A stretch of 64,000 nt of DNA from an uncultured Acidobacteriota bacterium (GCA_963716925.1 CAVQUX010000015.1:308104-372103), one strand, 5' to 3'; shown: positions 5,507 through 35,974, counted from the stretch's first letter. Notes: generated by a model from the sequence alone, not told the origin. Numbers and translations: made by a program.

Positions 5507-5703
5507 CTGAAGCACCCAGCTCTCGGCCTCTTGCCGACTCCGACCAAGTCCCTTTCGCCCCCCGAATGCCATCTCACGAGTCCTGGCGGAAAGGTCTGAT
5601 TGCGGAGGCCTATTCCCCTCATCTACCGCTATTTGACTCGCCCCAGATGAGGGACACCTGATCCTCAGATGAACTCTTGTTAAGGTTCGTGGGCAACCAC
5701 GGC

Positions 5704-10528: not shown

Positions 10529-11905
10529 TCAGAATCCCGGTCCTCTGCGCCCGCCTGCGGGAGCCGGGACTACCGCCCGACTCGGGGGCTGCCTTCGCCA
10601 GCGCCGCGACGATCACGCGGTCGCCGTCCTTCAGGCCGCCCATCGGTCACCTCCGTGAAGGTGCCGTCGGTCTCGCCGGTACTGACCACGACACGGTGCG
10701 GCCTGTCGTTCACGTCCAGGATCCAGACAGCCTTTTCCGGTGCGGCGCCCTTCTCGACGCTGGCTGCTTCCGTTCGGGGCTCGGGGTGATAACGAAGGGC
10801 GGCGTTGGGGATCTTCAGCACATTCGGCCGCTGATTCACGAGAATCTTCACGTTCGCCGTCATGCCGGGAAACAGCTTCAGCTCCGTATTCGACACGCCA
10901 ATCACGGCGTCGTAGGTGATCACGTTCTGCACGTTGATGGGGGCCTTGCGGATCGGAGGTCACGGTGCCGGTGAAAGTCTGCCCTGGATAGGCATCCACG
11001 GTGAACGTGGCAGACTGGTTCACTCGCACGCGTCCCACGTCCGCTTCCGACACGTTCGTGTCCACCTGCATCTTCGTCAGGTCCTGCGCGATCAAAAACA
11101 ACGTGGGAGCCGCCAGGCTGGCAGCAACCGTCTGCCCGACATCCACGTTCCGTGACACCACGATGCCGTCCACCGGCGCCTTGATGTTCGTGTGATCCAG
11201 GTCGATCTGGGCCGACTGCAATGCCGCGGTGAACTGCTTCACCTGCGCCTGGTTGGAAGTCATCAGCGATTTCGCCACGTTCAATTGAGCCTGCGCCACC
11301 TTCACGCTGTCTTCCATCGCAGTCTGCTGCGCCATGAGGGCGTCGAGATCGGCCACCGCCGACTTGTACGTCGTCTGGGCGGTTTCGAGATCCTCTTTGG
11401 AGTCCGCGTCCTGACTGACCATGATCACGCGCCGATCGACCTTGACCTTGGCGTCCTCGGCGATAGCCTGTGCTTTCACGACATTCGCTTTGGCAGCGGC
11501 GAGCGAAGAGTTGGCGGCCTGAATGCCCGCCAGCGCCTGCTGAACCACGGCCTGGCTGTTGGCGACGGCGGCTCGGGCGGCGGCGACGTTCGCCTGTGCC
11601 TGATTCACCCTCGTCTGGAAGGGGGCCGGATCGATCTGGGCGATCAGCTCTCCCTTGGTTACCTTGGTGTTGAAGTCGGCGAACAACGCCAGAATATTGC
11701 CTGACACCTGCGAGCCCACTTGCACGGTGACGACCGCGTTGGGGTTCCCGGTGGCCGAGATGGTGACGTTGATGTCGCCGTGTTCGATCGTCGCCGTTCG
11801 GTATCGAACGCCGGACCGACTGCCGAGCCAGGCCCACGTCAGCAGCCCGGCAATCGCGCACGTGATGGCGCCAGCCAGGACAACCGTCTTCCTCTGCATA
11901 CTCAT
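10529..11905 (-). CDS. HlyD/MacA-family membrane fusion protein, 2 frameshifts
   Basis: TM anchor, long coiled-coil ([10 protein letters not shown]...), barrel/MP domain continues in ORFs 10570-10932 and 10368-10643 ([10 protein letters not shown]..., LKDGDRVIV). Confidence 0.7.
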
Positions 11906-12075
11906 CGGTTACTCAAGGGATGCCGCCGGGGCACCGCCGCCATGGCCCGTTCGTCGGAATTCATCACGTCGTCAGCTCCATTTGTATTAGACCCGAAGAG
12001 CCTGAGCGGGACATGAGGCGCGAATTAATTCCGTTTAATCCGCCCCCGCGATCGCGCGCCCATGAGTGGACACGC
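11906..12075. repeat. about 170-bp intergenic cassette, copy 1 of 2 (second copy 14326-14520, roughly 85% identical by eye)
   Basis: Shared strings TCGGTTACTCAAGGGATGCCGCC, CCCGTTCGTCGGAAT, TTGTATTAGACCCGAAG, CCTGAGCGGGACATGAGGCGCGAATTAA, TTAATCCGCCCCCGCGATCGC; abuts the start codon of the membrane fusion protein gene. Confidence 0.7.
12024..12040. promoter_or_regulatory. ATTAA-N6-TTAATC dyad motif (site 1 of 7)
   Basis: AT-rich inverted repeat in GC-rich DNA; identical 11-bp half-site spacing at all 7 sites. Confidence 0.45.
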
Positions 12076-12245
12076 GCGCCCCGACGATCCGTGCGCGCTG
12101 TCAACGAAGAAGTCGCGAAGACACCTCTGCTACCGTTTGGCTTCAATTCCGACGGTCTCGAGAGGGGATAACCGTGAGCCTGACCATTTCCTGCCCACAC
12201 TACCGTTGCCGCGCAGGCGCCCCTGACGACTCTCACACAGCTGAT

Positions 12246-13296: not shown

Positions 13297-14325
13297 TCAC
13301 TCGCTGGCCTCGACGGCGAAGACGAAAACCGTGCGGTCGTCACACCAGTTGGGGACTTCCGCAGGGCCGGGGGCCGCAGCCGCGACCCGGAGCAGTTCGT
13401 CGCAGATCTGGGCTGGCGAACTTCCCGCGGTCAAACGCTCCAGCGACGCTCCCAGGGTCTGGCTCAGAGTCGTCGGCCCGGTTCCGAGCGCTTCGGTAAT
13501 GCCGTCCGTGACCAGTACGCCGATGTCGTTCGGGCTCAGGGCGAGGTCGGCGACCGAATACGTCGCCCCCGGAAGCAGCCCCAGGGGTGGCCCGCCGGAC
13601 TCGATCGCAGCGGTGAGCGATCCGTTCCGCACCAAGTAGCCCGCGGGATGGCCGGCGTTGACGTAGACGAGCCGCGCGGGCTCCGTCTCGAAGCGCGCCA
13701 CGATGGCTGTCGCGTACGGTAGCCCCGCGTACTCTTCGTAGAGCGCCGCGGAGATCCGCTCCGCGATGATCGCTGGGGCGCCGGTCTCGCGAGCGAAGGC
13801 TCGAAACAGAGTCTTGAGCGACGACAGGATGAGCGCCGCCGGGATGCCCTTGCCCGAGACGTCGCCCAGGATCGCGAGCACCGTGTCCGAGGTGGGCTGG
13901 AAGAAGTCGTAGAAGTCGCCCCCGATGTGGCTCGCAGGGATCATGCGCGCCGCCCAGCGGAAGCTCTGGGTGGTCTGCGGGACGTCGGGCAGCAGGCCCC
14001 GCTGGATCTGCAGCTGCGAGGCGCAGTTGCTCGTTGACGGCAATCTGCTCCTGCTGCAGCTTGAGTACGTGAGTTCGAGAAGCCTTCAGATGAAGCCAGA
14101 GGTAGGTGAGCCCGGCCACACCGATCGAAATCACGGCGTCGCTCAGCCACTCCAACTCGCCACGGTTGCCGTGAACCGCACGGATGATCATCGACTCTGC
14201 CGCCGTGCCGACGGCGAAGACGGCGATTCCCGCCGCCGTAGCGAGAACCGAAGGTATCCACACGGCCGGACCGACCCCGGCGGGCACCCTGCGAGTCGGG
14301 CTCAGCGCCTCTGAGCCTTCATCCA
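13297..14325 (-). CDS. PP2C/SpoIIE-family serine phosphatase with N-terminal TM segments, 1 frameshift near 14000
   Basis: IGGDFYDF...LGDVSGKGIPAA...VNAGHP...TDGITE motifs; N-terminal membrane part MDEGSEALSP... lies in a different frame. Confidence 0.7.
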
Positions 14326-14520
14326 TGCGTCGGTTACTCAAGGGATGCCGCCCGGCGCACCGCCGCCATAGCCCGTTCGTCGGAATCCATCAAGTCGTCG
14401 CCTCAGGTTGTATTAGACCCGAAGGGCCTGAGCGGGACATGAGGCGCGAATTAAATCCACTTAATCCGCCCCCGCGATCGCACGCCCGTGAGAGGACAGA
14501 GCCGCCCCGGTGATCGACGA
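14326..14520. repeat. about 170-bp intergenic cassette, copy 2 of 2 (see 11906-12075)
   Basis: Same sequence blocks as copy 1; lies between the divergent PP2C gene (minus) and the response regulator gene (plus). Confidence 0.7.
14450..14466. promoter_or_regulatory. ATTAA-N6-TTAATC dyad motif (site 2 of 7)
   Basis: ATTAAATCCACTTAATC. Confidence 0.45.
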
Positions 14521-14594: not shown

Positions 14595-15270
14595 ATGCGC
14601 GTCCTCGTGATTGAGGACGACCGGAAGGTCGCGAGTTTCATCCAGACCGGCCTCGAGCAGGAAGGCTACGCCGTGGACCTCCTCAACGACGGCGCGGAGG
14701 CGGGCGATCAGGCGCTCGCCATCGATTACGACGCCGTCGTGCTCGATTTGATGCTGCCAGGCCGGTCCGGGTTCCAGGTTCTGCGGGACATCCGGGCGAG
14801 AAAGGCGTCGCTGCCGGTGCTCATTCTCACGGCCAAGAGACTCGCTCGAGGAGCGCGTCGCCGGGCTCGATGCCGGTGCGGATGACTACATGACCAAGCC
14901 GTTCGCGCTCGCGGAGCTCTCGGCACGGCTCCGCGCCTTGCTCAGGCGCGGCGCGCCTCGCGAGAGCGTTCTGCGCGTGGCGGACCTCGAGATGGACACC
15001 GTGCGGCGCAAGGTGCGACGCGCGGGAAGAGCGATCGACCTGAAGCCCAAGGAGTACGCGCTGCTCGAGATTCTGATGCGGAACGTCGATCGTCCGTTGA
15101 CCAAGGCGCTGATCATCGAGCACGTCTGGGACATCCATTTCGACAGCATCAGCAACGTCGTCGAGGTCCACATCAACTCGCTGCGAAACAAGATCGACAA
15201 GGGATTCGACATCCCCCTCATTCACACCATCCGGGGAGTCGGGTACGTCCTCACGGAGGCTCCGTCGTGA
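14595..15270 (+). CDS. OmpR/PhoB-family response regulator, 1 frameshift near 14835
   Basis: MRVLVIEDD...DLMLPGRSGFQVL receiver, then winged-helix LKPKEYALLEILMRN...TIRGVGYVL in a second ORF. Confidence 0.8.
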
Positions 15271-16670
15271 CCCTGACTCTGCGCGCCCGGTTGGCCACGA
15301 TCTCCACGATCGTGTTTGGCCTGCTCCTCGCGGCGCTCAGTTTTGTTTCGTACGAAGTACTCTCCCGGCAGCTCGATGCTGACGTCACGGAGCGCCTCAC
15401 GCAACTCACCGATGGTCTCCATGGGTACTTGCATTTCGACGGCGACACGGCGTCGGTCGTGTTCGACGCAAGAGACAACGATCAGGCGGTGTTCGTCAAC
15501 GAGGCGACGAGATACTACCAGGTATACGACGCAGAAACCGGCCGCCTCCTTGCCGAGTCGAGTGCGTTGACACCTCTCGCACTGCACTTGACCCCGGGTG
15601 AGGTCCGGGGGTTTCGCGCGGAGCCGACGCCCTTCGACATCGAGACCGAGTATGGCCGACTGCGCATCTCCAACAGCTTGGGGACGGAGGCAAACGGCCG
15701 CGCGTACCTCCTGCAGTTGGGGGTGTCGCTCGTGCCGATGGATACGGCGCTCGCGCGTTATCGCGACCACCTGTTGTGGCGTGTGCCGGTGGCGCTTCTG
15801 GTCGCCATCGCTGCCTCGTGGTGGCTGTCGGCGCTCGCCTTGCTCCCGCTTTCTCGGGTGGCGGTGGCGGCGAGCGAGATCAACGTGCAGACGCTCGAAC
15901 GGCGGCTGCCGAGTCGCGGCGTGGACGATGAACTCGAGCAGTTGGTCGACGCCTTCAACGACACGCTCGGGCGCCTCGAACATGCGGTCGGGGAGATGCG
16001 CCAGTTCAGTGCTGCCCTGGCGCACGAGCTGCGTACGCCGCTGGCCGCGCTTCGAGGCGAGATCGAGCTGGCCATGCGGGCGCCTGGAGCGAACCCGGCA
16101 CAGCGAGACCGGTGTGCCAGCCAGGTGGAGGAGATTGACAGGCTGACGCGGCTCATTGACCACATCCTGACCTTGGCCCGGGCCGAGTCCGGCCAGATTC
16201 GGCTTACCCGTGCGCCAGTCAATCTCGCCGATCTCGCCGCCTCTCTCGTCGAGCAGCTCGAGCCCCTCGCGGCGGCGAGGTCGATCGAGCTGCGCTCGGA
16301 GCCGTCCGATGCGGTGTTTGTCGATGGCGACGCCGGCTGGCTCCAACGACTGTTGCTGAACCTGGTGGACAACGCCATCAAGTTCACGAAGGAGAACGGC
16401 CGGATCGTGGTGCGGGTCACCCGCGAGGGCGACGACGCGCGGGTCGATGTGCAAGATACGGGAGTTGGCCTGTCGCCCGCCGATGCGCGGCAGGCGTTCG
16501 AACGATTTTTCCGAGCCGAGCCCGCTCGTTCCTCCTCGACCGAAGGCGCGGGGCTCGGCCTGAGCCTGGTCCGGTGGATCGCGGCGCAACATCGCGGAAC
16601 GGTAACCGTTCAGAGTCGTCTGGGCGAGGGCTCGACGTTCACCGTCACCCTGCCCCTCAGTCGAGGCTGA
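15267..16670 (+). CDS. sensor histidine kinase (two TM, HAMP, HisKA, HATPase_c)
   Basis: GTGA overlap with regulator stop; H-box LAHELRTPL; DTGVGL and GLGLSLV G-boxes; intact 467 aa ORF. Confidence 0.85.
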   Translation: MTLTLRARLATISTIVFGLLLAALSFVSYEVLSRQLDADVTERLTQLTDGLHGYLHFDGDTASVVFDARDNDQAVFVNEATRYYQVYDAETGRLLAESSALTPLALHLTPGEVRGFRAEPTPFDIETEYGRLRISNSLGTEANGRAYLLQLGVSLVPMDTALARYRDHLLWRVPVALLVAIAASWWLSALALLPLSRVAVAASEINVQTLERRLPSRGVDDELEQLVDAFNDTLGRLEHAVGEMRQFSAALAHELRTPLAALRGEIELAMRAPGANPAQRDRCASQVEEIDRLTRLIDHILTLARAESGQIRLTRAPVNLADLAASLVEQLEPLAAARSIELRSEPSDAVFVDGDAGWLQRLLLNLVDNAIKFTKENGRIVVRVTREGDDARVDVQDTGVGLSPADARQAFERFFRAEPARSSSTEGAGLGLSLVRWIAAQHRGTVTVQSRLGEGSTFTVTLPLSRG

Positions 16671-20063: not shown

Positions 20064-20987
20064 ATGAGACATACGAAAGCAGCTAGCACTCTACTGGCGA
20101 CGATGGCGATTTTGGTCTCTGGCTCGCCGGTCATGGCGCAGTCGCGCCACGGCTATAACCACGGGGGTCGATCGATGAGCTACCAACCTCATTATTATCG
20201 ACCCTACGGCTATGGACCTCGGGTCGGTTTCTACGGTTACTTCGGCGCTCCCTACTACCCGTACTACTGGCCCTATTACGGTGGCCCCTTCTATCCGGGC
20301 TACTACGGGTACTACGGGTCCTACAGCCCGTGGGCTTCCTTCCGTATCGAGGTCAAACCCAGAGAGGCGAACGTTTACCTCGACGCCTACTACGCCGGCA
20401 TCGTGGACGACTACGACGGAGCGTTCCAGCGACTCAACGTGCCGCCGGGCAATCACGAGATCGCGGTGTATCTCGAGGGGTATCGGACCATCCGACAAGC
20501 CCTCTACGTGAGCCCCGGGAGCTCCTACAAGATCAAGCAAGAGATGGTTCCTCTGGCCCCGGGTGAGGCGCAGGAGCCACCGCCGGAGGCGGCGCCGCCG
20601 GACGAGTTCACCGGGAACGAGCCTCCCGCGGTCATGACTCCCCAGGCACAGCTCACGCCGGCTCCGACGATGCCTTCGACACCCCCGGCGGCGGCCGCCG
20701 TGTCGGAGCCAGCCGATTTCGGAGTCCTGGAAGTGCGGGTGCAGCCTTCCGGCGTTCGCCTGCGTATCGACGGAGAGCCTTGGCTGGCCGAGCCTGCAGG
20801 TCCGGTTTCCATCCATCTGCCTCAGGGACGCCACCGAGTCGAGATCGAGAAGGAAGGCTTTCAGTCCTTCGCGGGCGACGTGGTCGTGAGCTCCGGGAGG
20901 ACCACGACGCTGAACGTGAAGCTGTCTTCGAGCAGATCGTTCGAGGAACCACAGGATCGATCGTTGCTCGTCAGGGGCTCCGAGTGA
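20064..20987 (+). CDS. secreted PEGA-domain protein with a Tyr/Gly/Pro-rich low-complexity N-terminal region
   Basis: Signal peptide; YYRPYGYGPRVGFYGYFGAPYYPYYWPYYGGPFYPGYYGYYGSY; two PEGA-like beta-sandwich segments (FRIEVKPREANVYLD..., LEVRVQPSGVRLRIDGEP...). Confidence 0.6.
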   Translation: MRHTKAASTLLATMAILVSGSPVMAQSRHGYNHGGRSMSYQPHYYRPYGYGPRVGFYGYFGAPYYPYYWPYYGGPFYPGYYGYYGSYSPWASFRIEVKPREANVYLDAYYAGIVDDYDGAFQRLNVPPGNHEIAVYLEGYRTIRQALYVSPGSSYKIKQEMVPLAPGEAQEPPPEAAPPDEFTGNEPPAVMTPQAQLTPAPTMPSTPPAAAAVSEPADFGVLEVRVQPSGVRLRIDGEPWLAEPAGPVSIHLPQGRHRVEIEKEGFQSFAGDVVVSSGRTTTLNVKLSSSRSFEEPQDRSLLVRGSE

Positions 20988-21396: not shown

Positions 21397-21425
21397 CTAC
21401 TTCATTGCAGAGAAGGAGAAGAGTC

Positions 21426-22169
21426 ATGAGAACTACATCACCCATTCTGGCGATCATCCTGGCGGGAGCGCTGGACCTCTCCCCTACGGTGTCCGCCGCG
21501 GACCAGACGAACGACGCTACAATCCGTGCGAAGGTCGAAAAGAAGCTCCAGTCCGAACAACTGACGAACCTGACCGGTCCTTCCGTCGAAGTGAAAGACG
21601 GCATGGTCATTCTGACGGGACGGACCGAGACCCTGTATTCCAAGGACAAGTCGGTCGCCGCGGCGATGGGGGTCGAGGGTGTCACCGGCGTCCAGGACCG
21701 CCTGGAGATCCCGAAAGGCGAGAGCGATCCGAAGGTCGCGGAGGCTATCACTCGAGAGGTGCGCCGCTACCCGTTCTTCACCATCTATGACGACGTGAAC
21801 CTGCTGATCGACGATGGCAACGTGACGCTCGTGGGGCGCGTGACCATGCCCTTCAAGTCGAACGAGATCGCCGAACGGGTCTCGAAGCTCGCGGGCGTGC
21901 AGAGCATCAAGAACGAGCTCGAAACGCTCCCGACGAACATCGGAGACCAGAGACTCCGGGCGGTCCTCGCCCACCGGATCTACGGCAACCCATCATTTCG
22001 CGAGTACGCCTCGATGGTCAATCCGCCGATCCACGTCATCGTCGAGCACGGACGCGTCGCGCTGACCGGCGCCGTCCGATCCGAGGTGGAAAAGCGCCAG
22101 GCGGAGGTCATCGCCCGCTCCACATTCGGCGTCTTCTCGGTCGACAACCGTCTCGTGGTTGCGAGCTGA
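21426..22169 (+). CDS. BON-domain (OsmY-like) periplasmic protein, three BON repeats
   Basis: Signal peptide MRTTSPILAIILAGA; repeated ...V.V.DG.V.L.G.V... BON pattern. Confidence 0.7.
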   Translation: MRTTSPILAIILAGALDLSPTVSAADQTNDATIRAKVEKKLQSEQLTNLTGPSVEVKDGMVILTGRTETLYSKDKSVAAAMGVEGVTGVQDRLEIPKGESDPKVAEAITREVRRYPFFTIYDDVNLLIDDGNVTLVGRVTMPFKSNEIAERVSKLAGVQSIKNELETLPTNIGDQRLRAVLAHRIYGNPSFREYASMVNPPIHVIVEHGRVALTGAVRSEVEKRQAEVIARSTFGVFSVDNRLVVAS

Positions 22170-22357: not shown

Positions 22358-22374
22358 ATTAACGGAAGTTAATC
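22358..22374. promoter_or_regulatory. ATTAA-N6-TTAATC dyad motif (site 3 of 7), perfect palindrome ATTAAC-N4-GTTAAT
   Basis: cATTAACGGAAGTTAATCtgcgcCTCACG, about 100 bp upstream of the STAS gene. Confidence 0.5.
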
Positions 22375-22470
22375 TGCGCCTCACGATCCGCTGAACCGTG
22401 TCTCGTAGTATTTGCTTCATGATCACGAGATCGACTGCCGCATCAACCAAAAGGGGTTAGTCACACGTTG

Positions 22471-22815
22471 ATGAACATCGAGCAACGGAGCGTCGGGGAC
22501 GTCATCGTGCTGTCGATCCGGGGCGATATCACGATGAATGGAACTGGGGCGACTCCGCTGGCAGACAAAGTCCGAAGCGAGCTCCAGCAAGGTCGCGATC
22601 GCTTTGTGCTCGATTTGCGGCACGTGCGCTACGTAGACAGCGCGGGACTCGGGGAGCTCGTGCAGGCGTTCTCTGCCGTGCTGAACCGAGGCGGAGCGAT
22701 GAAGCTCCTCAAGGTGACCAAGCGGCTGAAAGACTTGCTCGTGGTGACCAAGCTCCTGACCACGTTCGCATGCTTCGAAGAAGAATCAGAGGCGCTGGCC
22801 AGCTTCGAGCCTTAG
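22471..22815 (+). CDS. STAS-domain anti-sigma-factor antagonist (SpoIIAA/RsbV-like)
   Basis: 115 aa; conserved DSAGLGEL motif around the phosphorylatable Ser. Confidence 0.7.
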   Translation: MNIEQRSVGDVIVLSIRGDITMNGTGATPLADKVRSELQQGRDRFVLDLRHVRYVDSAGLGELVQAFSAVLNRGGAMKLLKVTKRLKDLLVVTKLLTTFACFEEESEALASFEP

Positions 22816-25002: not shown

Positions 25003-26166
25003 TCAGAAGCTGACAGTGCGCGCGAAGTTGTAACGCCAGCCCTCGACGCTGTGGGCCACTTCGAGACGGAGCGCGGTGTAAGTCGAGCCGTGAAACCGGG
25101 CGCCGATACCCCATCCCCGCTTCAAGTCGTGCAGGTCGAGCGCACCCGCGCTTGCGGCGACGGTTCCGTGGTCGAGGAAGACCGCCATGTCGACCAGCGG
25201 GGACGGTGTCCAGCGCAGCTCGCACCTCAGGAGCAGGCTGTTGTTGTCCGTGAAACGGTAGTCTGCGAACCCGGGAAGCGTGTCCCGCCCGCCGATCCAG
25301 GGCAGCATGAAGAAAGGGATGACCTGCCCCTGCGCCGACGAGGCCAGGTCGGCTCGCGCCTGCAGGGCGATGATCCAGTTGTTGTGAAGGAGGGGCACGA
25401 ACTGCCGGAGGTCGATCTCGGTTCGGGTGAAGTCGGCAGCGGTTCCGCGGCCTGCGTAGTCGTGGAAGCCGACGCGGTACAGGCCGCCGGAACTCGTGTA
25501 CCCGGGCGATTGGCGCGAATCGACCGCCGCGTACGCCGTAGTGTGCCACCATTCCGCGGTCGAGCTCGTACCGATAGTCGGCGCGTCTCCGGTCCCCTCG
25601 CTCGATTGGACGTCCAGATAGCTCGCGCCCACGCCGTATCGGAACCACCGGGCGCTGCGGGCCTGCACTTCGCCGCCGACTTCCGTTGTCCGCAGGCCGT
25701 AACTCACCCCGTCATCGATCGAAGTGCCGGTGCCGAGTCCAAAGAACTGAAGTTCTGGAGCGTCTTCCCACCTGGCAACGGCGCGTACGCGCACCCGGTC
25801 GGTGGCCAGGGGCGGTATGTCCACCGCCGTCTCCACCTCCTTGAAGTGCTTCACCGACCATGCCGCCGAAACGTCCCACAATCCACGCTCGCCCACGGGC
25901 ATCTCGTAGCCAACGCCGAGGGCGAAGCCGCCGCCGGGCCGAAAATCACCGAAGTGGAGGCGGATGGCCGGTGGCGCCGGCAGCAATATGTGCTCGAGCT
26001 CGGTGATGATGACGTCACCCTTCTCGCGCGTTTCGGGCTTCACGTCAGCGGCCTTGGCTGCTTTCTCGTCACTGATCTGTTCAGCACGTGTTGCTTGCGC
26101 CCAGGCACGAGGTGCCATGAGCCAAGCGATCAGCCAAAGGGCGGCTCCGGGGTACCTGCGCGGCAT
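25003..26166 (-). CDS. outer-membrane beta-barrel protein (hypothetical)
   Basis: Signal peptide; alternating amphipathic beta-strand pattern; C-terminal ...RYNFARTVSF ending in Phe; intact 387 aa ORF. Confidence 0.55.
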   Translation of the reverse strand: MPRRYPGAALWLIAWLMAPRAWAQATRAEQISDEKAAKAADVKPETREKGDVIITELEHILLPAPPAIRLHFGDFRPGGGFALGVGYEMPVGERGLWDVSAAWSVKHFKEVETAVDIPPLATDRVRVRAVARWEDAPELQFFGLGTGTSIDDGVSYGLRTTEVGGEVQARSARWFRYGVGASYLDVQSSEGTGDAPTIGTSSTAEWWHTTAYAAVDSRQSPGYTSSGGLYRVGFHDYAGRGTAADFTRTEIDLRQFVPLLHNNWIIALQARADLASSAQGQVIPFFMLPWIGGRDTLPGFADYRFTDNNSLLLRCELRWTPSPLVDMAVFLDHGTVAASAGALDLHDLKRGWGIGARFHGSTYTALRLEVAHSVEGWRYNFARTVSF

Positions 26167-26358: not shown

Positions 26359-27297
26359 ATGACGTCATCTGGAATGATCCTGGTTCTTGCTGCGGCGCTG
26401 GGCGTGCCCGCCACGGGGCGAGCGTCGTCGAGGGACGACGGGAGCGTCGCAGAAACGGACCGCACGCGGCAAGCGGAGCCGGCCCAGCCCCCAGTGGAGG
26501 ACGGTGCTGTGTTGCCGAAGGAGCAGTCGCCGGCGATCGACCCATCGCAGACCAGAGCGGCCGAGGAGGACGTGCCGCAGGACGGGAAAACCGGATTACG
26601 CACGCTTTTCCGTGATCTTGGCAGCGACTTCGCGCACCTGCCGTCTCGCGATTCGCTCTTCGTCGCCAGCATAGGGGGTACCGCCGCTCTCGCCCTGCAC
26701 CCGTTCGACGCGACGTTCAACGAGCACCTCCAAGACTCATCGTTCTTCAGCGCTGGCGATCGGCTCGGAAACACGTTCACGCTCATGGGCGCGACGTTCG
26801 CCGTGTACGGCGTCGGGCTCGCGACCGGCCATCATCGCGTCACCCACGTGGCGATGGACGTGGTGCGAGCGCAGCTCGTGAGCGAAGCCCTGGTGCAGTC
26901 GTTGAAGGTGGCGGTGCGCCGGGAGCGGCCGGACGGCAGCAGCGGCTATTCGTTTCCGTCCGGCCATGCGGCGGTGACGTTCGCCACCGCCACCGTGCTC
27001 CAGCGGCATCATGGCCTCAAGTGGGCCCTGCCGGCCTACGGGCTGGCGACGTATGTGGCCATGTCGCGGCTTCACGACAACGTGCACTACCTGAGCGACG
27101 TCGTCTTCGGGGCGACCATCGGTACGCTGGTCGGGCGGACCGTGACTCGACACGGCCCCCAGAACTTCGCCTTCATGCCGATGGCGGTACCTGGCGGCGC
27201 GGCGTTTGTCGTCCTGTACTCACCCAGAGGCTCAATAGAGTGCGGCTTCAACGGACCTCGCCGAGTACCGCTGCGGTTCGCCCAGTCCAGTCATTAA
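26359..27297 (+). CDS. PAP2-family (acid) phosphatase
   Basis: KVAVRRERP, FPSGHAA and SRLHDNVHYLSDV motifs (KxxxxxxRP / PSGH / SRxxxxxHxxxD). Confidence 0.75.
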   Translation: MTSSGMILVLAAALGVPATGRASSRDDGSVAETDRTRQAEPAQPPVEDGAVLPKEQSPAIDPSQTRAAEEDVPQDGKTGLRTLFRDLGSDFAHLPSRDSLFVASIGGTAALALHPFDATFNEHLQDSSFFSAGDRLGNTFTLMGATFAVYGVGLATGHHRVTHVAMDVVRAQLVSEALVQSLKVAVRRERPDGSSGYSFPSGHAAVTFATATVLQRHHGLKWALPAYGLATYVAMSRLHDNVHYLSDVVFGATIGTLVGRTVTRHGPQNFAFMPMAVPGGAAFVVLYSPRGSIECGFNGPRRVPLRFAQSSH

Positions 27298-27441
27298 GGG
27301 AAGTTAAGCGGTCGCTCACGCTCCGATCATCGGCGAGAGGTCAAATGGAGTTGAGAGCATCCAGCGGTGCAGCGCCGGTGGCTCGGTGAGCCTCGGGCGG
27401 TGCCGCGAAAAAAGAGGAGAGACGTCATGAGACTTCGCCGT
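27288..27441 (+). repeat. about 155-bp upstream cassette (promoter, 5'UTR, RBS and first 5 codons MRLR), copy 1 of 2
   Basis: GTCATTAAGGGAAGTTAAGCGGTCGCTCACGCTCCGATCATCGGCGAGAGGTCAAATGGA...GCGGTGCCGCGAAAAAAGAGGAGAGACGTCATGAGACTTCGCC is near-identical to 34458-34610. Confidence 0.7.
27293..27309. promoter_or_regulatory. ATTAA-N6-TTAAGC dyad motif (site 6 of 7)
   Basis: tcATTAAGGGAAGTTAAGCggtcgCTCACG. Confidence 0.45.
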
Positions 27442-28041
27442 AGGAGTCAAGAAATGCTCATCCGACCCTTGAAGATCCACTGGTTTCCGGCCGCTTTGAT
27501 CATCGGCTTGCTCGGAGCGGCCTGCGCCGAAGCTCCCGAGAGCGAGGAAAAAGACGCGAAATCGGCGATCGCGATGGCCCGCGCCGCCGAGGCGGCAGTC
27601 TACGCCCCCGACACCCTCGCCCTTGCCGAAAAGGCGATGACGGATGCCGCCCGAGCGATAGACACCGAAGCGCACCGCTTCGGTCCGATGCGCAGCTACA
27701 GGGAAGCCTCGAGACTTCTCGAAGAAGCGAAGACCCGCGCCGATGAAGCGAAGGCTCAGGCGGAGCAAGAGCGCGAGAAGTGGATGCGTGACGCGAAATC
27801 CGCCGTCGCTGATGCACGCAGCGGGCTCGAGCAGGCGAATGCGGCCCTCGCCAAAGCGCCGAGACAGCTCGCGCAGCAGCCCGAGATGAAGAAGAGGGGC
27901 GAGGACTGCGAGAAGCTGCTCTATGACGCGGAGAAGGCCTTCGACGCCAAGAGCTACAAGGACGCCGCGGAGAAGGCCCGAGACGCTCAAGCCGCGGCGG
28001 ACGACCTTGTCGAGAGCCTCCTGGTGGGTTTCCGAGGGTGA
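27427..28041 (+). CDS. hypothetical lipoprotein, Ala/Lys/Glu-rich coiled-coil
   Basis: Signal peptide with lipobox LLGAAC; helical low-complexity body. Confidence 0.5.
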   Translation: MRLRRRSQEMLIRPLKIHWFPAALIIGLLGAACAEAPESEEKDAKSAIAMARAAEAAVYAPDTLALAEKAMTDAARAIDTEAHRFGPMRSYREASRLLEEAKTRADEAKAQAEQEREKWMRDAKSAVADARSGLEQANAALAKAPRQLAQQPEMKKRGEDCEKLLYDAEKAFDAKSYKDAAEKARDAQAAADDLVESLLVGFRG

Positions 28042-28165
28042 GCTGGGGAGTTTCCCAGGTGCGGGGTCCCGTATCGGTGGATAAGGTTCACGACCGGGGG
28101 CCTATCCGTCTCGCCTGTGCGAAGTGGACCATTTTCTACGCCGAAAGGCGCGAAGGAGAGGGGTG

Positions 28166-28582
28166 ATGCAGAGTGCGGTCTTGGTTGCCGGGAAGAGAAG
28201 CGCGGCCGTGGCTCGACGGGTCGAGAAGGTTTGGTCCGTCATACTCGCCGACGGCGAGGGAACGCGGATCAAGCCGTTCATCGAGATGTGGTTCGGCGAC
28301 GGCCGCCCGAAGCAGTACTGCACTTTCACCGGAACGCGCTCGCTCTTTCAACATACCGTCGACCGAGCGGACTCCTTGGCGCCGCAGGCCCAGCGAATCG
28401 TGGTGGCGGCAGCTCACCACGACCGGTACGTCCGCGAACAACTCGGCGATAGGGAGGGACGAGTGCTCTTTCAACCCCGCAATCGTGGCACGGCGCCTGG
28501 AATCCTCCTTCCGCTCACCTACGTCCTCGCGCTCGCCCCGGAGGCTCTCGTCGTCATTTATCCATCCGATCACTTCGTCTAG
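28166..28582 (+). pseudogene. N-terminal fragment of a sugar-1-phosphate nucleotidyltransferase (ManC/GMP-like), truncated after 138 aa
   Basis: ILADGEGTRIKPF...GRPKQY...NRGTAPGILLP...VIYPSDHFV then a stop; no continuation detectable in 28583-28899. Confidence 0.45.
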
Positions 28583-28899
28583 TCGCGCGAACTCGGATTG
28601 CGGATCAAACGAGCGATGGATAGGAAACGCTTGGGACGAGGGTTGCCCGCGCCACATCAATCACTCCGAACGACGCTCGAGCGCCTCGGCGTCTTTCGGT
28701 ACGGAGCGCAGGCGAGAGCCGGGCGAAAGATCAGGTCGGGGCCCGGTTGGAACGCTGACCCGGGAGTTCAGGGAAATGAAGGAATACGAGTTCGGCCCAG
28801 ACATCCTGCCTCTAGCATTCGAACGGTTCGTCTTCGCGGTTCACCCGCAGGTCGCTGTTGACCGGGGCGGAAAGACTCGCGCAGACAGGAGATTCGTCC

Positions 28900-29592
28900 A
28901 TGGATCCAATCACCATCATCGGCGTGGCCCTGGTGGCCATCGTTTCCATCACCAGTCACGAGGCGGCCCACGGTTTCGTGGCCGATCGTTTCGGCGATCC
29001 CACGGCGCGCGAGCAGGGGCGCCTTACCCTGAATCCGCTTCCGCACATCGACCTGTTTTTCACAATCCTGCTTCCGCTCGTGTTGATCCTGTCCCGCTCG
29101 GGCTTCATCTTCGGAGGCGCCAAGCCGGTTCCGGTGAACGTGTCGCGGTTGCGGAACCCTCGACGCGACTGGGCGCTGGTGGGCGCCGCGGGGCCGCTCA
29201 TGAACGTGCTCATCGCCCTCGTGCTTACGGTCCTGCTCTCGGCCGCCGCGCACCTCGGCCTCGCCGATGCGTCTTCGAGCCTGACGGAGATCCTCTCGGT
29301 GGGTATCTTCCTCAACGCGCTGCTCGCGATTTTCAATCTCATCCCGATTCCTCCCCTCGACGGGTCGCGAGTGCTCCAGTACTTCCTCTCCGGGGAGAGT
29401 CTCGACCTCTACCGGCGCGTCGAGCAGTTCGGCCTGTTGATCCTCATCGCCCTCCTCTTCCTCGTCCCATCGTTCCAGTTCTTTCTGGCGGACGCGATCT
29501 TCGGGCTCGTCGCGATTATCACGGCGCCGTTTGGCGTGTGGGCAGACGTCGAGCCGCTGCTCCGAAGTCTTCTATTTCCGCCCGGTACGTGA
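28900..29592 (+). CDS. site-2-protease-type M50 metallopeptidase (small membrane form)
   Basis: HEAAHG (HExxH) and [10 protein letters not shown] motifs; 231 aa, 4-6 TM. Confidence 0.75.
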
Positions 29593-29638
29593 TGGACGAC
29601 TCCGCGTTGTAGACTCGTACCGCGGATCGAGAACGAGC

Positions 29639-31770
<2,132 letters not shown>

Positions 31771-31901
31771 TTGTCAGAGATTCAGGAAGCGGCCGACGTG
31801 AACGCTATCAACGCGTTATCGACACCCGGGTCCTCCGCGACGGCTTGCGGGCATGAGTCTTGCGCATGATCCCAACGGTGGGGGAACGAAAGGGTGGAAA
31901 A

Positions 31902-32780
31902 ATGAGACGAATAGGCGCTCTCGAATTTGCCTTCGCGCTGATGCTTGTTCCCGGCCGCTCGATGGCGGGCCAGGAGGCGCTCTATACCGACGGAGAGCTC
32001 GAAGATTGCCTCCTGGCCGACCTGTCGCATCTCGACATCCACGGTCTCGACGTCCGGGTCGTCGGGGGCATGGTCGACGTTTCGGGCGAAGTGGGAAGTC
32101 TGGCCGAGAAGAAGGAAGCGGAATCGACGATAAGGCGAAGATCGCAGGTGCGCGACGTCTCCAACGAGCTTCGAGTGGCGCAGGTTCCCGATGCCGAGCT
32201 GCAGCGAGACGTCCTGGCGGCGCTCGAGGACAGCCGCCACTACACGATTTACGACGAGCTGAGCGCATCCGTCTCCGGAGGTGTCGTGACTCTCGCCGGT
32301 CGCGTGCCTCGGGACAGCGCTCTCGACGGAGTCGTGAGCGACCTGTCAAAGGTGCGGGGCGTCCGCGCGATCCAGAACGAGGTGCGAATCCTTCCCTACA
32401 CTCCGGAAGAGGAAAAGCTGCAGGAAGGGGTAGCCATCGACGTCTCGGCGGCTCTGGTGAAGCTCGATCGACGAACTTCTTCCCTCCATGTCGTCATCGA
32501 GAACGACACGGTCACTTTGAGCGGGATGGTCGGGGACGACATTGCGAGGAGAGCCGCGGAAGAGGCAGCCCGTCGATCGGCAGGCGTAAAAGAGGTACAG
32601 AATCGGCTCCGGATCGGGGAGCCCTGGACGCGACCGCGATCCTCGATACCGGAAGACTCTATCGATCGCGGCACGGAGCTTGCGAAGGCTCCCCGCGCCA
32701 CGGCTGCCCGCGCCTTTGCACGGCAGGACGGGTCACACCGCTATGCGGGGATAGACCTGGGCAGCAATGATCACAAGTAG
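31902..32780 (+). CDS. BON-domain periplasmic protein (three or four BON repeats)
   Basis: Signal peptide MRRIGALEFAFALMLVPGRSMAG; repeated BON-like segments. Confidence 0.65.
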   Translation: MRRIGALEFAFALMLVPGRSMAGQEALYTDGELEDCLLADLSHLDIHGLDVRVVGGMVDVSGEVGSLAEKKEAESTIRRRSQVRDVSNELRVAQVPDAELQRDVLAALEDSRHYTIYDELSASVSGGVVTLAGRVPRDSALDGVVSDLSKVRGVRAIQNEVRILPYTPEEEKLQEGVAIDVSAALVKLDRRTSSLHVVIENDTVTLSGMVGDDIARRAAEEAARRSAGVKEVQNRLRIGEPWTRPRSSIPEDSIDRGTELAKAPRATAARAFARQDGSHRYAGIDLGSNDHK

Positions 32781-33029
32781 AGTCGTGGTCGAAAGGAGCA
32801 GCAGGAAATCCGTGCCAATGCCAAAGATGCTGGTTCCTCCCGCAATCATGAAAGCTCGAAGCACATCGACCTCGTAGCTGAGCGGGTTGATCCGCGCAAC
32901 GAGACGCAACCAATCGGGCATGATCGCCAACGGGTAGATGGCGTTGCTGGCGAAGAATAGAGGCATCGTCAGGATCTGCCCGATCCCCATGAACCGCTCG
33001 CGAGTCTTGACGATGGCTGCGATGATCAA
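32733..33029 (-). pseudogene. C-terminal fragment of an ABC-2-type transporter permease
   Basis: Last 2-3 TM helices only (…INPLSYEVDVLRA…); no upstream remainder of the gene; overlaps the 3' end of the BON gene. Confidence 0.4.
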
Positions 33030-33099
33030 CGAAAGGGTGGCGAAGCAGCCGCGCCACCGCTATGTGCGCGCGGGGCGGACTGCTTTCCTCTCACGGGAC

Positions 33100-33847
33100 G
33101 TCGGGAGTGGCGCGGCCCGCCGCGCTCCTCTCCGACGATGAGAAACAGCCATTTGACCAGGCGGGTGGTCACCTCCTCGACATGCAGCGCCGGGTGGGCC
33201 GTCTGGATGAGCTCGGTCGTTCGGCCGAAGTACGTCCCAACGCCGGTCGCCACGACGACAGCGGTGGCCTCACCCCGACGAACGCTCGATCCGGAGTAAA
33301 CGGCTTCGTCCGCCGCCCTTTTGGCCTCCTGAGATTCTCCCGTCAGTGCAGACTGGTCCACCCGCAACTCGCCCTCGAGGATGAGTGCGTCGGCGGGGAC
33401 GATATCCCCCGCACGCACGCGCACCACGTCGCCTTTCACCAGCTCACGCGCTGCGAGAGGCTTCCAGGTCCCGTCGCGAAGCACTCGAGCCGTGACCTGG
33501 AGCCGGCGCCGAAGAGCGGACACGGCCGCCGAGGCGCGTTGCTCGTGCAGGAAACCGAGGGTCGCGTTCACCGTGAGCAGCGCGAGGGCGTTCCAGAAGT
33601 CAGCCCGCTTGTCGAGAATGAGGGAGAGGGCCACGATCAGCTCGAGCATCCACGCGGAAAGCCCCCAGAATTTGCTCGCGAGTCGAGCGAGCGGGTGAGC
33701 GCTCTTCTCGGGAACCTCGTTCGCACCCTCCCGGTCCAGCCTGAGCCTCGCCTCGGCAGCGGTCAGACCGGCCTCGCGGCTCGAGCCGAGGAATTGAATG
33801 GCGTCCGTCGCGGACTGGACCGGTTTGTGCGGTTCGATATCGGGCAT
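33100..33847 (-). pseudogene. N-terminal fragment of a P-type ATPase (PMA/H+ or Mg2+ type): TM1-2 plus actuator domain only
   Basis: GLTAAEARLRLDREGANEVPEK, TM helices, VLRDGTWKP...GDIVPADALILEG...ALTGES, then loss of homology; no DKTGT region follows. Confidence 0.5.
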
Positions 33848-33915
33848 CACCACGGCGGAGCTCGTCAGGTCGGTCCTCGGGCGACGAGCACGCGGATTGA
33901 CTCCAACGCGTCTGA

Positions 33916-34110
33916 GAGAGCCTCAGCGGGCTCGATCTTCAGAGTGAGCTCGCCAGAGCCGGGGCGTGTATTCCCGTCATTTTCGTCACCGGTCACGGTG
34001 ACATCGCGATGTCCGTGCGGGCTATGAAGGCCGGCGCGGTGGAGTTCTTCACGAAGCCGTTCCGCGATCAAGACCTTCTCGATGCGGTTCAAGACGCTAT
34101 CGAAGGCGGC
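33916..34110 (+). pseudogene. C-terminal half of a FixJ/NarL-type receiver domain (fragment)
   Basis: ESLSGLDLQSELARAGACIPVIFVTGHGDIAMSVRAMKAGAVEFFTKPFRDQDLLDAVQDAIE; in-frame stop immediately upstream; no HTH follows. Confidence 0.45.
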
Positions 34111-34140
34111 GCACGTCGAGCACCAGGCAGTCGGGAACGT

Positions 34141-34257
34141 CTCCGGTTGCTCCTGGTGCAGGAACTCCTGCGCCGAGCCGAAAGTCCCGACGCCGAGCCC
34201 CACCGAGCGGAGGAGACTGCTGAGTGCTTCGCGAATAGGTGGGGCGTCATCAATCAC
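34141..34257 (-). pseudogene. N-terminal 39 aa of a FixJ/NarL-type receiver domain, on the opposite strand and head-on to the previous fragment
   Basis: MIDDAPPIREALSSLLRSVGLGVGTFGSAQEFLHQEQPE; the two halves converge at about 34115-34140, implying an inversion breakpoint inside one receiver gene. Confidence 0.4.
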
Positions 34258-34457
34258 ATACTGGCTCGGCTTCCTTCATGACCGACGCTCTGGCCTCTTC
34301 GCACCTAAGTGCAGTCTTACCACGACCATGTCAACAGGGATCGGCCGCGGGACCGGCGACCGAACCGAGGCGACGAGAAACAGGTTCTCCTGCCTTGCTC
34401 TTCCCTGTGCTCTCTCGGGCCAGTCAGCTCCCCGCGCACCCCCGGAAAGCGGGCAAG

Positions 34458-34610
34458 GGGGTCATTAAGCGGAGTTAATCGGTCACTCACGCTCCGATCA
34501 TCGGCGAGAGGTCAAATAGAACTGGGAAAACGGTTCGGCGTTGCGAGTGGCTCGGCGTTCAGCGCGGTGCCGCAAAAAAGAGAAGGAGAGACGTCATGAG
34601 ACTTCGCAAG
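34458..34610 (+). repeat. about 155-bp upstream cassette, copy 2 of 2 (see 27288-27441)
   Basis: GTCATTAAGCGGAGTTAATCGGTCACTCACGCTCCGATCATCGGCGAGAGGTCAAATAGA...GCGGTGCCGCAAAAAAGAGAAGGAGAGACGTCATGAGACTTCGCAAG. Confidence 0.7.
34464..34480. promoter_or_regulatory. ATTAA-N6-TTAATC dyad motif (site 7 of 7)
   Basis: gtcATTAAGCGGAGTTAATCggtcaCTCACG. Confidence 0.45.
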
Positions 34611-35231
34611 ATGGTGAACGCGTCGATGGTCGCCCTGGGGCTCGGCCTCGCCGCTCTGCCCGCGCTCGCGCGGGACAAGCCCCGATCCGCGGTCGACGAG
34701 ATTCGCAAAGAGCTGCTCCAGCTGCCGTATTACGGGGTGTTCGACTTTCTGGCGTTCAAGTACGACCAGGGATCCCTCACCCTGATGGGCTACGCCTATC
34801 GGCCCGTTCTGAAGAACGATGCCGAGAGAGCGGTGAAGCGGGTGGCTGAGGTCCAGACGGTGGAAAACCAGGTCGAGGAATTACCTCTGTCGCCGAACGA
34901 CGACAGTCTGCGTTGGCAGGTGTACTACGCGATCTATCGCGATCCCTTCCTGTCACGCTACGCACCCGGAGGCGGGCTCCTGTGGGGTCACCGGCATCCA
35001 TTCCTCGCCGGCACGTTCCTGCCGCTCGGGCCGAGTCGGTTCCCGGGCACCGAGCCGGCGGGCGACTACCCGATTCACATCATCGTGAAGAATGGCCGGG
35101 TCTTGCTGCTGGGAGTAGTGGATTCGGAGTCGGACAAGACAATCGCGGGTGTGCGGGCGCGAGAAGTGCCAGGTTCGTTCGCGATCGACAATGAGCTCGC
35201 TGTCGATCATCCGCCGTCGGGCAAGACGTAG
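34596..35231 (+). CDS. BON-domain periplasmic protein (two BON repeats)
   Basis: Signal peptide MRLRKMVNASMVALGLGLAALPALA; YGVFDFLAFKYDQGSLTLMGY and IHIIVKNGRVLLLGVVDSE BON-like segments. Confidence 0.6.
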   Translation: MRLRKMVNASMVALGLGLAALPALARDKPRSAVDEIRKELLQLPYYGVFDFLAFKYDQGSLTLMGYAYRPVLKNDAERAVKRVAEVQTVENQVEELPLSPNDDSLRWQVYYAIYRDPFLSRYAPGGGLLWGHRHPFLAGTFLPLGPSRFPGTEPAGDYPIHIIVKNGRVLLLGVVDSESDKTIAGVRAREVPGSFAIDNELAVDHPPSGKT

Positions 35232-35366
35232 GGGCGGAGTTGAAGGTGCAATCGGTGTTTTCAGTGGAAGAAATCGCAGGCTTGATCGCTGGTAGGTCGG
35301 CGTTCTTCGCCGGAAGGCCGCGCCCGTTGGCGCGAGCTGACCGAGGAGGAATTCCGGTCAATAAAC

Positions 35367-35380
35367 GTCCCGTACGGGAC
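35367..35380. promoter_or_regulatory. perfect 14-bp palindrome GTCCCGTACGGGAC, 13 bp upstream of the ATG (operator or 5'UTR hairpin)
   Basis: Seen directly, between the 35367 site and the RBS AGGAGA. Confidence 0.35.
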
Positions 35381-35392
35381 ACAAGGAGAAAG

Positions 35393-35974
35393 ATGATGGT
35401 ACATCGAATCATGTCGGTAGTGAGCCTCGGCGCCCTTCTTACGCTGTCGGCCGGTATAGCCGCGGCGCAAGAGAAGAAATATGAAGGCGAAATCGTCACC
35501 GTCGATACCAAGGACTACACTTTCACCGTCAAGGGTACGGCGAAGGGAGAAGTCGCCGAAATGAAGTTTCACGTCGGCAGGGAGAGCGAAGTTGTCGTCG
35601 ACGGCGAACGGAAGATTTTCGCGGAGCTCGGCAAGGGAGATCAAGTGACCGTCGAGTATGGAACCTCGGACGGAAAGCACACGGTGAAGCGCGCGGAGCG
35701 ACACAAGACCGCCGCGAAGGAGATGGCGCTCACCGGACAGGTGATCGCCGTTGATGCTGCCGCCCACACGTTTACCGTAAAGCGGAGCCAGGGCGGGCCG
35801 GTGGAGGAGATGAAGTTCCACGTCAACCCGACGACGCGGATCTATATCGGGACAGATCATCTCGAGCTCCTGAAACAGCTTCAGAAGGGAGACGACGTGA
35901 CCGTGCACTACATCAACGAGAGCGGAAACCAAATGGTCAGGCACGTAAGCAAGGCGAAGGCCAAGACGACCTGA
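35393..35974 (+). CDS. small secreted tandem-repeat protein (two repeats of about 75 aa), unknown function
   Basis: Signal peptide; repeat 1 EGEIVTVDTKDYTFTVKGTAKGEVAEMKFHVGRESEVVVDGE...; repeat 2 LTGQVIAVDAAAHTFTVKRSQGGPVEEMKFHVNPTTRIYIG... Confidence 0.6.
   Translation: MMVHRIMSVVSLGALLTLSAGIAAAQEKKYEGEIVTVDTKDYTFTVKGTAKGEVAEMKFHVGRESEVVVDGERKIFAELGKGDQVTVEYGTSDGKHTVKRAERHKTAAKEMALTGQVIAVDAAAHTFTVKRSQGGPVEEMKFHVNPTTRIYIGTDHLELLKQLQKGDDVTVHYINESGNQMVRHVSKAKAKTT

Follow-up and report, generated by a model that had tools for sequence, protein, structure and literature searches.

Copied promoter cassettes and a candidate response-regulator box in a genome segment of an uncultured Acidobacteriota bacterium

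How do two unrelated genes come to share a promoter, a 5' untranslated region (5'UTR) and their first codons? The question is raised by a 64-kb stretch of DNA from an uncultured Acidobacteriota bacterium (GCA_963716925.1, CAVQUX010000015.1:308104-372103), hereafter the window, which was analyzed as one strand and to which all coordinates refer. In the window, a gene for a DUF4398-like coiled-coil lipoprotein and a gene for a BON-domain secreted protein are preceded by homologous upstream regions, which we call pair A. The explanation that we favor, and consider likely, is that cassettes comprising promoter, leader and start region have been copied from gene to gene, that the core of these cassettes is the box of a neighboring two-component response regulator, and that the regulon of this regulator has grown as a result.

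The two regions of pair A (27290-27438 and 34461-34607) align in BLASTN with 79.2% identity over 154 columns (E=1.5e-30), with no further copy in the window. Aligned globally, they are identical in 125 of 144 ungapped columns (87%), with another 14 columns containing gaps, and the mean column identity in a MAFFT alignment is 84%. The similarity runs from GTCATTAA (27290 / 34461) to ATGAGACTTCGC (27438 / 34607). Thus, the approximately 155 bp described as near-identical in the original prediction are indeed homologous, but they are near-identical in blocks only (79% gapped and 87% ungapped identity overall). The 5' block (67 nt) has 88% identity, and the middle has diverged save for GTGGCTCGG. 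The 3' block, consisting of GCGGTGCCGC, a run of A, GGAGAGACGTC and ATG AGA CTT CGC, contains no substitutions, and its small indels are confined to the A-run; it ends in GGAGAGACGTCATGAGACTTCGC and spans 41 aligned positions without substitution. Both open reading frames (ORFs) therefore begin with the same four codons for MRLR and differ at the fifth (R versus K), just as had been claimed. The expected divergence beyond this point is equally clear, since the lipoprotein and the BON protein are unrelated in sequence (BLASTP E=4.3).

The promoter-like motif and its candidate regulator

Both regions carry a 54-bp promoter-like motif that recurs in the window (Table 1). We number it from the A of ATTAA (position 1), which puts the predicted transcription start (+1) at position 61. 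The motif consists of four hexamers, H1 ATTAAC (1-6), H2 nTTAAT (11-16), H3 nTTCAY (22-27) and H4 nCTCAS (33-38), followed by a -10-like TnnAAT (49-54) and by a purine at 61-62, which is taken as the start. The half-sites TTAA (2-5), TTAA (12-15), TTCA (23-26) and CTCA (34-37) succeed one another at spacings of 10, 11 and 11 in the 73 metagenomic instances described below. The dyad of the original prediction is more plausibly a pair of TTAA half-sites within a response-regulator box of the OmpR/PhoB type.

When the window was scanned with a position weight matrix derived from the metagenomic instances, eight sites scored 36.7-58.6 bits and none fell in the range of 8-36 bits; ten Markov-simulated windows reached 14.6 bits at most. 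Four copies had been named before; those at 5684(-), 12039(-), 14465(-) and 26239(-) had been missed, as had the second duplicated region, pair B. The two shorter copies at 22358 and 26268 proved real, but they have the 54-bp motif only and not the leader. A pattern derived from the four named copies matches the window six times against 0.04 matches expected, and the simpler expression TTAA-N6-TTAA occurs at seven loci, each of them a copy of the longer motif. The motif pattern has no match in 1.38 Mb of unrelated high-GC loci, including 80 distant GlgX-anchored loci. Each of the eight sites faces a gene start located 13-120 nt past the predicted transcription start. The site at 27293 reads ATTAAG (H1), GTTAAG (H2), CTCACG (H3), GATCAT (H4) and TCAAAT (-10-like box). 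Scans for sigma-70 consensus promoters and intrinsic terminators returned no sites in either pair A region, as expected of an activator-dependent promoter.

Table 1. Motif sites, shared regions and principal genes in the window (bits, weight-matrix score; RBS, ribosome-binding site; assignments of source and derived copies are predictions)
Feature	Coordinates	Strand	Remarks
Motif, 37 bits, degenerate	5631..5684	-	Before DUF5666-like small secreted protein 5078-5572 (-); orthologous degenerate site in L208
Motif, 58 bits	11986..12039	-	Before HlyD-ABC-OEP efflux operon (10631-11905 and downstream)
Motif, 59 bits	14412..14465	-	Before membrane PP2C/SpoIIE phosphatase 13297-14341 (-); divergent from response regulator
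Motif, 49 bits	22358..22411	+	Before STAS gene 22468-22815; motif also at L170 ortholog
Motif, 52 bits	26186..26239	-	Before Omp85-like 387-aa gene 25003-26166 (-); back-to-back with 26268; also at L183 and L091 orthologs
Motif, 51 bits	26268..26322	+	Before PAP2 gene (ATG 26359-27297)
Motif, 43 bits	27293..27346	+	Before DUF4398 lipoprotein gene; predicted start ~27353
Motif, 49 bits	34464..34517	+	Before BON gene; predicted start ~34524
Pair A, putative derived copy	27290..27438	+	Promoter, 74-nt leader (GC hairpin, A-run, GGAGAG RBS), ATG AGA CTT CGC
Pair A, probable source copy	34461..34607	+	Native promoter, leader and start of BON gene
Pair B, putative source copy	11905..12084	-	Promoter and ~75-nt leader of HlyD efflux operon
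Pair B, putative derived copy	14330..14510	-	Inserted in PP2C-regulator intergenic region
OmpR-family response regulator, candidate factor for motif	14595..15270	+	1-nt frameshift near 14838
Sensor histidine kinase, CusS/CopS-like	15267..16670	+	Two transmembrane segments, HAMP, HisKA, HATPase; cognate partner
DUF4398-like coiled-coil lipoprotein	27427..28041	+	Extension MRLRRRSQE (9 residues), then native signal peptide MLIRPLK..LLGAAC
BON-domain (OsmY-like) secreted protein	34596..35231	+	

Metagenome contigs were scanned with the pattern ATTAA-N3-RA-N-TTAAT-N7-TCAYG-N6-TSA, which gave at least 120 loci (labeled L below). We kept 101 of the 120 listed, high-GC contigs from soil metagenomes with a GC content of at least 0.55, and took from them 73 non-redundant motif instances for position statistics; counts over 101 or 73 refer to the matches listed. 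The AT-rich remainder (GC <0.55) was set aside as apparent chance matches. Three such loci with GC of about 0.40-0.42 (L146, L159 and L104) contain tandem arrays, for example GGGATTTAATGGGACATTCATGG, which are unrelated repeats matching the pattern by chance.

Several positions that the pattern leaves free are nonetheless conserved, namely T23, T29, T49, A52, A53 (71/73) and T54, with an enrichment of purines at 61-62. From 63 to 110 and upstream of position 0, the information content is close to zero. The first plausible start codon follows position 61 at a median distance of 37.5 nt, and at no more than 60 nt in 65 of 84 cases. Since conservation stops at the predicted start and the motif is in register with the genes, it has the signature of a promoter and operator rather than of a transcribed element.

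The association with particular genes extends beyond the window. STAS, HlyD and Omp85-like orthologs on other contigs carry the motif, and the locus of a BON ortholog (L081, 68% amino acid identity) has three copies. The motif is kept upstream of four HlyD orthologs (L101, L139, L164 and L178), where the leaders, from ~22 to ~80 nt long, have no sequence similarity. The commonest target is a small secreted DUF5666 protein with a weak resemblance to CusF (31 of 52 non-redundant downstream genes among the matches listed), followed by GGDEF, DksA/TraR, STAS and Omp85-like genes. DksA/TraR-type zinc-finger proteins recur as motif-driven genes (L092, L106, L128, L138, L176, L198 and L202); in L202 such a gene (462-1339 (-)) is second behind a motif that stands back-to-back with the BON promoter, and none was seen in the window. 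The literature searched holds no description of the motif, and the operator/promoter is apparently undescribed so far.

Which protein might read this motif? In tblastn searches with the window proteins, an ortholog of the response regulator or of its kinase was found on 68 of the 101 listed motif loci. Regulator orthologs in these loci are mostly 75-95% identical (the two weakest matches kept have 58% and 65%), and kinase orthologs are 47-81% identical. As many as 61 listed motif instances directly adjoin one of the two genes: 35 lie divergently to the regulator gene, whose start is a median of 71 nt away, and 26 begin at the kinase stop codon (median offset 2 nt). The window has a matching arrangement, as the site at 14465(-) lies 130 nt from the regulator start. 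Because the loci were chosen by the motif alone and are mostly only 1-5 kb long, the linkage is strong evidence that the motif belongs to this system. The motif core is therefore probably the binding box of the neighboring response regulator, as judged from sequence.

In the 26 listed instances at the kinase stop codon (L108, L111, L125, L141, L162, L168, L185 and others), H1 (ATTAA) starts at or overlaps this codon. Promoters are thus packed right against the upstream gene, and the window offers a parallel in the PAP2 stop codon that lies within H1 (27293-27297).

The best NCBIfam matches are TIGR01387 (CusR/CopR) for the regulator, with 248.2 bits against a cut-off of 279.2, and TIGR01386 (CusS/CopS) for the kinase, with 283.3 bits against 292.55; both are below cut-off, and HprR, RppA, PmrA and QseB families come next. 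In a comparison with solved structures, the recognition helix of the regulator, SNVVEVHINSLR, aligns with that of PmrA/BasR, TNTLEVHIHNLR. The regulator has more than 4000 relatives at E<=1e-60, of which the best 120 are 88-96% identical and 223-238 amino acids long (nearly all 224); one relative bears the name Acidobacteriota bacterium, and many orthologs are annotated as CusR by JGI. The best GlgX matches point in addition to Vicinamibacterales and Thermoanaerobaculia. Taken together, the motif reads as the probable box of a CusR/PmrA-like regulon, the host lineage probably being Acidobacteriota. Weak matches to CusF, a periplasmic copper chaperone, were also seen for the ORF that follows the BON gene (35240-35974 (+)) and for three DUF5666 targets. 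They fit loosely with a CusRS-like system and hint at a metal signal.

Some other genes of the window appear fragmented or frameshifted. The PP2C gene (13297-14341 (-)) is split into two overlapping ORFs, a GlgX-like region (28173-31856 (+)) into two or three, and a P-type cation ATPase (31782-34257 (-)) into at least five minus-strand ORFs. Fragmentation of this kind also marks L081, from a related long-read-style assembly, suggesting that the assembly is error-prone.

Two copied cassettes

If the motif alone is common to all eight sites, which of them share more? Past the -10-like box, the pair 27293/34464 reaches a local alignment score of 42 and the pair 12039/14465 one of 62, compared to 7-15 for the other 19 site pairs and 9.2 +/- 1.8 (maximum 19) for shuffled sequences. 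As the leader scores are high in two pairs only, they represent two duplicated cassettes and not a family-wide leader. Hence the formal alignment upholds the claim that similarity in pair A extends past the dyad. A BLAST search with the two pair A leaders against all fetched loci found no homologous leaders. The proposed modular reuse of promoter, 5'UTR and signal-peptide start is borne out as well: the cassette appears to have been copied as a unit, and there is another independent case at a distance of 13 kb.

For pair A, the N-termini of orthologs point to a direction. BON orthologs (68-79% identity) start with M-x-L-R-K, for example MRLRKVVNAS in P0002, and four of them (L081, L202, L205 and L206) have a common AAGGAGAG..ATG ribosome-binding region. 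Lipoprotein homologs, on the other hand, have a signal peptide of ~20 residues up to the lipobox Cys, and the window protein has an additional segment in front of it. The lipoprotein's own AGGAG and ATG (27454) follow in frame directly after the copied ...ATGAGACTTCGC, 9 codons past the copied start. At its other end, the derived cassette begins within the PAP2 stop codon, with TAA (27295-27297) inside H1. Since MxLRK is native to BON orthologs and the lipoprotein gene keeps its own RBS and ATG, we infer that the cassette was copied from the BON gene to the lipoprotein gene.

The lipoprotein has no close ortholog in the protein collection searched, its best match being just 36% identical. Its exact sequence is missing from a collection of 5.8 billion proteins that does include others encoded by this contig. 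The gene is overlapped by an antisense ORF of equal length (27316-27990 (-)), and the source annotation probably missed or mis-stranded it. The two in-frame starts call for caution in any work on this gene. A second BON gene, with three domains (21426-22169), has a nearly identical RBS and start (AGAGAAGGAGAAGAGTCATGAGA, 21409-21431) and no motif upstream; it may be co-transcribed with a PEGA-domain gene (20064-20987).

Pair B consists of 11905-12084 and 14330-14510, which are 88% identical over 180 nt (BLASTN E=6e-62) and occur in the window only as these two copies. The genes that follow, HlyD and SpoIIE/PP2C, belong to different Pfam families. Around HlyD orthologs elsewhere the motif is native and the leaders are different. 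The closest relatives by regulator identity, L207 (96%) and L208 (95%), both have a PP2C gene divergent from the regulator; the spacer between them measures 80 nt in L208, and neither locus has a motif there. The corresponding spacer in the window is ~260 nt long and consists of a regulator-proximal part of 75-85 nt, as in the relatives, and the 180-nt insert. Because the spacer is short and motif-free in relatives, and the HlyD motif is native, we infer that the efflux cassette was copied to the PP2C gene.

The pair B leader (11905-11975 (-) and 14330-14400 (-)) includes a small ORF of 20 and 18 amino acids, respectively (MDSDERAMAAVRRAASLE*), the stop of which overlaps the HlyD start (ATGA). 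We rejected it as a gene: its C-terminus is altered by a 1-nt indel, it is absent from HlyD orthologs, and it is probably non-coding. HlyD-type promoters (12040-12084, 14466-14510; L101, L139, L164 and L178) also have a conserved GCGATCG-containing stretch ~10-20 nt upstream of H1, which falls outside the general motif.

These observations can be assembled into a simple scheme. The phosphorylated OmpR/PhoB-family regulator would bind the motif as tandem dimers, one at the distal H1-H2 box (about -60 to -45) and one at the proximal H3-H4 box (about -39 to -23), the latter replacing a -35 element, and occupancy of H1-H4 would recruit RNA polymerase in the manner of PhoB and PmrA. The regulon would consist of envelope and stress genes: BON/OsmY-like, DUF4398 lipoprotein, DUF5666/CusF-like periplasmic, PAP2, Omp85-like, HlyD-ABC-OEP efflux, STAS and PP2C. 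In one event, a BON cassette of ~150 bp (promoter, 5'UTR, RBS and first four codons) would have been copied before the lipoprotein gene, landing in frame upstream of its own RBS and ATG, so that the gene joined the regulon. In a separate event, a copy of the 180-bp efflux promoter and leader would have come to lie between the PP2C and regulator genes. Observed directly are the repeats, the motif scores, the conservation of the motif and its linkage to the regulator and kinase genes; that the regulator binds, where transcription starts, that the effect is activation and not repression, and which copy gave rise to which are deduced from sequence features.

The scheme involves no new mechanism and amounts to ordinary, unsurprising regulon growth. 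Its interest is twofold. The operator lets the regulon of a very abundant and highly conserved two-component system of uncultured soil Acidobacteriota be read from metagenomes, and the lipoprotein and PP2C genes illustrate, with a donor and a recipient that can be inferred, how the copying of a whole cassette may wire a gene into a regulon in nature.

Competing explanations

A number of points weigh against this scheme. The regulator gene is broken in the window: within 14830-14845 it reads AAGAGACTCG where L178 has AAGGACTCG, and this frameshift is either an assembly error or the mark of a pseudogene of the proposed motif reader. The closest relatives, L207 and L208, have no motif upstream of the regulator, so the linkage is not universal. 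The scan pattern itself fixes parts of H3 and H4, and conservation there is partly by construction; independent support for these hexamers comes from a smaller set, namely sites found with just the first two half-sites required and sites found by orthology (L202, L206, L207 and L208), both of which keep TTCAYG, CTCA and nnAAT in register. H1-H2 is a perfect inverted repeat, which allows a symmetric dimer of another family. The transcription start and protein-DNA binding are predictions. The similarity within the pairs could be maintained by gene conversion rather than stem from one-off copying, and the zero-substitution 3' block of pair A suggests either selection or recent conversion. Lastly, the -10-like box seldom has A at the second position (5 of the 73 listed instances). 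Housekeeping sigma factors normally require this A, and a non-housekeeping sigma factor may act at these promoters.

The last point leads to the alternative in which the motif is itself the promoter of an alternative sigma factor, either of the extracytoplasmic function (ECF) type or a partner-switching one like sigma-B, with TTCAYG as -35, GTCnAAT as -10, and the TTAA pair as an UP element or a separate activator site. The -10-like box, often GTCnAAT and devoid of the canonical A-11, resembles ECF -10 elements, partner-switching genes (STAS and PP2C) are among the regulon members, and no sigma-70 consensus promoter was found. However, the 20 nt that separate TTCAYG from TnnAAT exceed what the known geometry of the sigma-70 family allows, and the four hexamers are phased by 10-11 bp like XTTAAY boxes. 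Moreover, the listed loci contain no sigma or anti-sigma gene linked to the motif, whereas the regulator or kinase is so frequently adjacent. We therefore regard a sigma-only reading as unlikely; it is also compatible with the one we prefer, as a regulator box and a non-housekeeping sigma factor may operate together.

Other readings of the motif were tried and rejected. A MerR-type operator in a long spacer would require a spacer dyad, and none is consistent across instances. The geometries of sigma-B (GTTTAA-N14-GGGTAT), sigma-H and sigma-54 misfit the conserved positions, as judged by eye.

A different way to account for the pairs is recurrent copying guided by homology, in which templated repair or gene conversion seeded by the 54-bp box keeps recruiting neighbors, and the 3' block of pair A is a co-selected translation-control module conferring the donor's post-transcriptional behavior. 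Both copying events fall within 25 kb, and the pairs are both about 87-88% identical. As a whole we give this proposal a low probability.

The original prediction suggested that the conserved leader may carry a post-transcriptional element, and one may think of a riboswitch, a thermosensor, or a small-RNA or protein target that co-regulates both mRNAs, with selection keeping the 3' block. In support of this, the 41 aligned positions at the 3' end of pair A are free of substitutions while the mid-leader has diverged, and both pair A leaders (about 74 and 72 nt long, each with an A-run and a strong RBS), like the leader of the BON ortholog in L206, can form a GC-rich hairpin that is followed by the RBS after 10-15 nt. 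The folds themselves speak against it. The z-scores of the pair A leaders (-0.73 and +0.60) are no better than those of shuffles, six leaders together gave z = -0.7 to +1.5 with no excess stability, and the predicted stems of the two pair A leaders use different pairings. No Rfam family matches the window at its gathering score, and a search of the two leaders relaxed to E<=1 gives one chance-level match to a small nucleolar RNA on the opposite strand. Conservation past the start is missing from the 73 listed promoters, orthologous leaders range from 22 to 80 nt, and in L081 and L205 the BON gene follows a DUF5666 gene as the second of an operon and thereby lacks a separate leader. Nor does the near-palindrome CCGATCATCGG, previously placed within the leader, belong to it: it occupies motif positions 31-41 (-30 to -20), ahead of the predicted start, and overlaps H4. 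What is shared among the sites ends at the -10-like box and the predicted start, and the post-transcriptional element is left unsupported. The 3' block can be explained by ordinary selection on a strong RBS and start region; most simply, it reflects selection on translation initiation or a recent conversion tract. An RNA element thus seems very unlikely.

That the repeats are a small mobile element carrying a promoter (a miniature inverted-repeat transposable element, an insertion sequence fragment or an element like repetitive extragenic palindromes) is highly improbable: there are dispersed direct copies before unrelated genes, but each cassette has only two copies in 64 kb, terminal inverted repeats are absent (best end-to-end inverted match 6-8), none of the four boundaries shows a target-site duplication, the cassettes end where functional units do (at the first hexamer and around the start codon), and the core is in register with downstream genes across many genomes.

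Relation to known systems

How does the proposed regulator box compare with characterized ones? In the PmrA box, 5 nt separate two XTTAAY hexamers, and the box overlaps the -35 region; PmrA contacts the TAA bases via T187, N188, V192 and H195, and PhoB occupies -41 to -25 (PMC10570014). Like these class-II promoters of PmrA/BasR and PhoB, the window motif has its tandem hexamers, built around TTAA, on one face of the helix. Its weaker proximal box, which the predicted start would put at about -39 to -23 and where no -35 consensus was found, would parallel the PhoB site. The regulator belongs to the fold family of PmrA/BasR and resembles it in the recognition helix, in which the N and V of the base-contacting residues are conserved. 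Several features set the motif apart. The spacing between H1 and H2 is 10 bp (a 4-nt spacer) instead of 11; the hexamers number four, of which the distal two, H1-H2, are strong, would lie at -60 to -45 and form a perfect inverted repeat; and the -10-like TnnAAT does not have A-11. The host also differs, being an uncultured Acidobacteriota bacterium, and the window box is known from sequence alone.

CusRS/CopRS are the best-scoring curated families, and the resemblance includes the position of the box, which in cusR/cusC lies in a divergent intergenic region beside the regulator gene (PMC10920338), just as the window box lies in a divergent region next to its regulator gene. Targets in common include an efflux operon and small periplasmic CusF-like/DUF5666 proteins. 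In contrast to CusRS/CopRS, the window system scores below the curated cut-offs, has another box sequence and has a much larger regulon, mostly of envelope and stress proteins, with no copper-type metal ATPase linked.

Finally, promoter copying has already been described as a phenomenon. Matus-Garcia et al. (2012, PMC3488235) defined putative mobile promoters as sequences of at least 50 nt with at least 80% identity that precede non-homologous genes within a genome; there are more than 4000 families, mostly of two members, with a mean identity of 92% and often within a few nt of the start codon (PMC3488235). Both pairs fall within this definition, pair A with its 67-nt block at 88% (79-87% overall) and pair B with 88% over 180 nt. 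The upstream neighbors differ too, being PAP2 and a P-type ATPase gene in pair A and GGDEF and response regulator genes in pair B. Compared to other mobile promoters, the cargo in the window is identifiable as a candidate response-regulator box, and donor and recipient are inferable. In addition, the cassette of pair A extends four codons into the coding region, and the recipient, whose RBS and ATG are undisturbed, has two starts in frame. The motif is a new instance of a promoter with a box of the OmpR/PhoB family.

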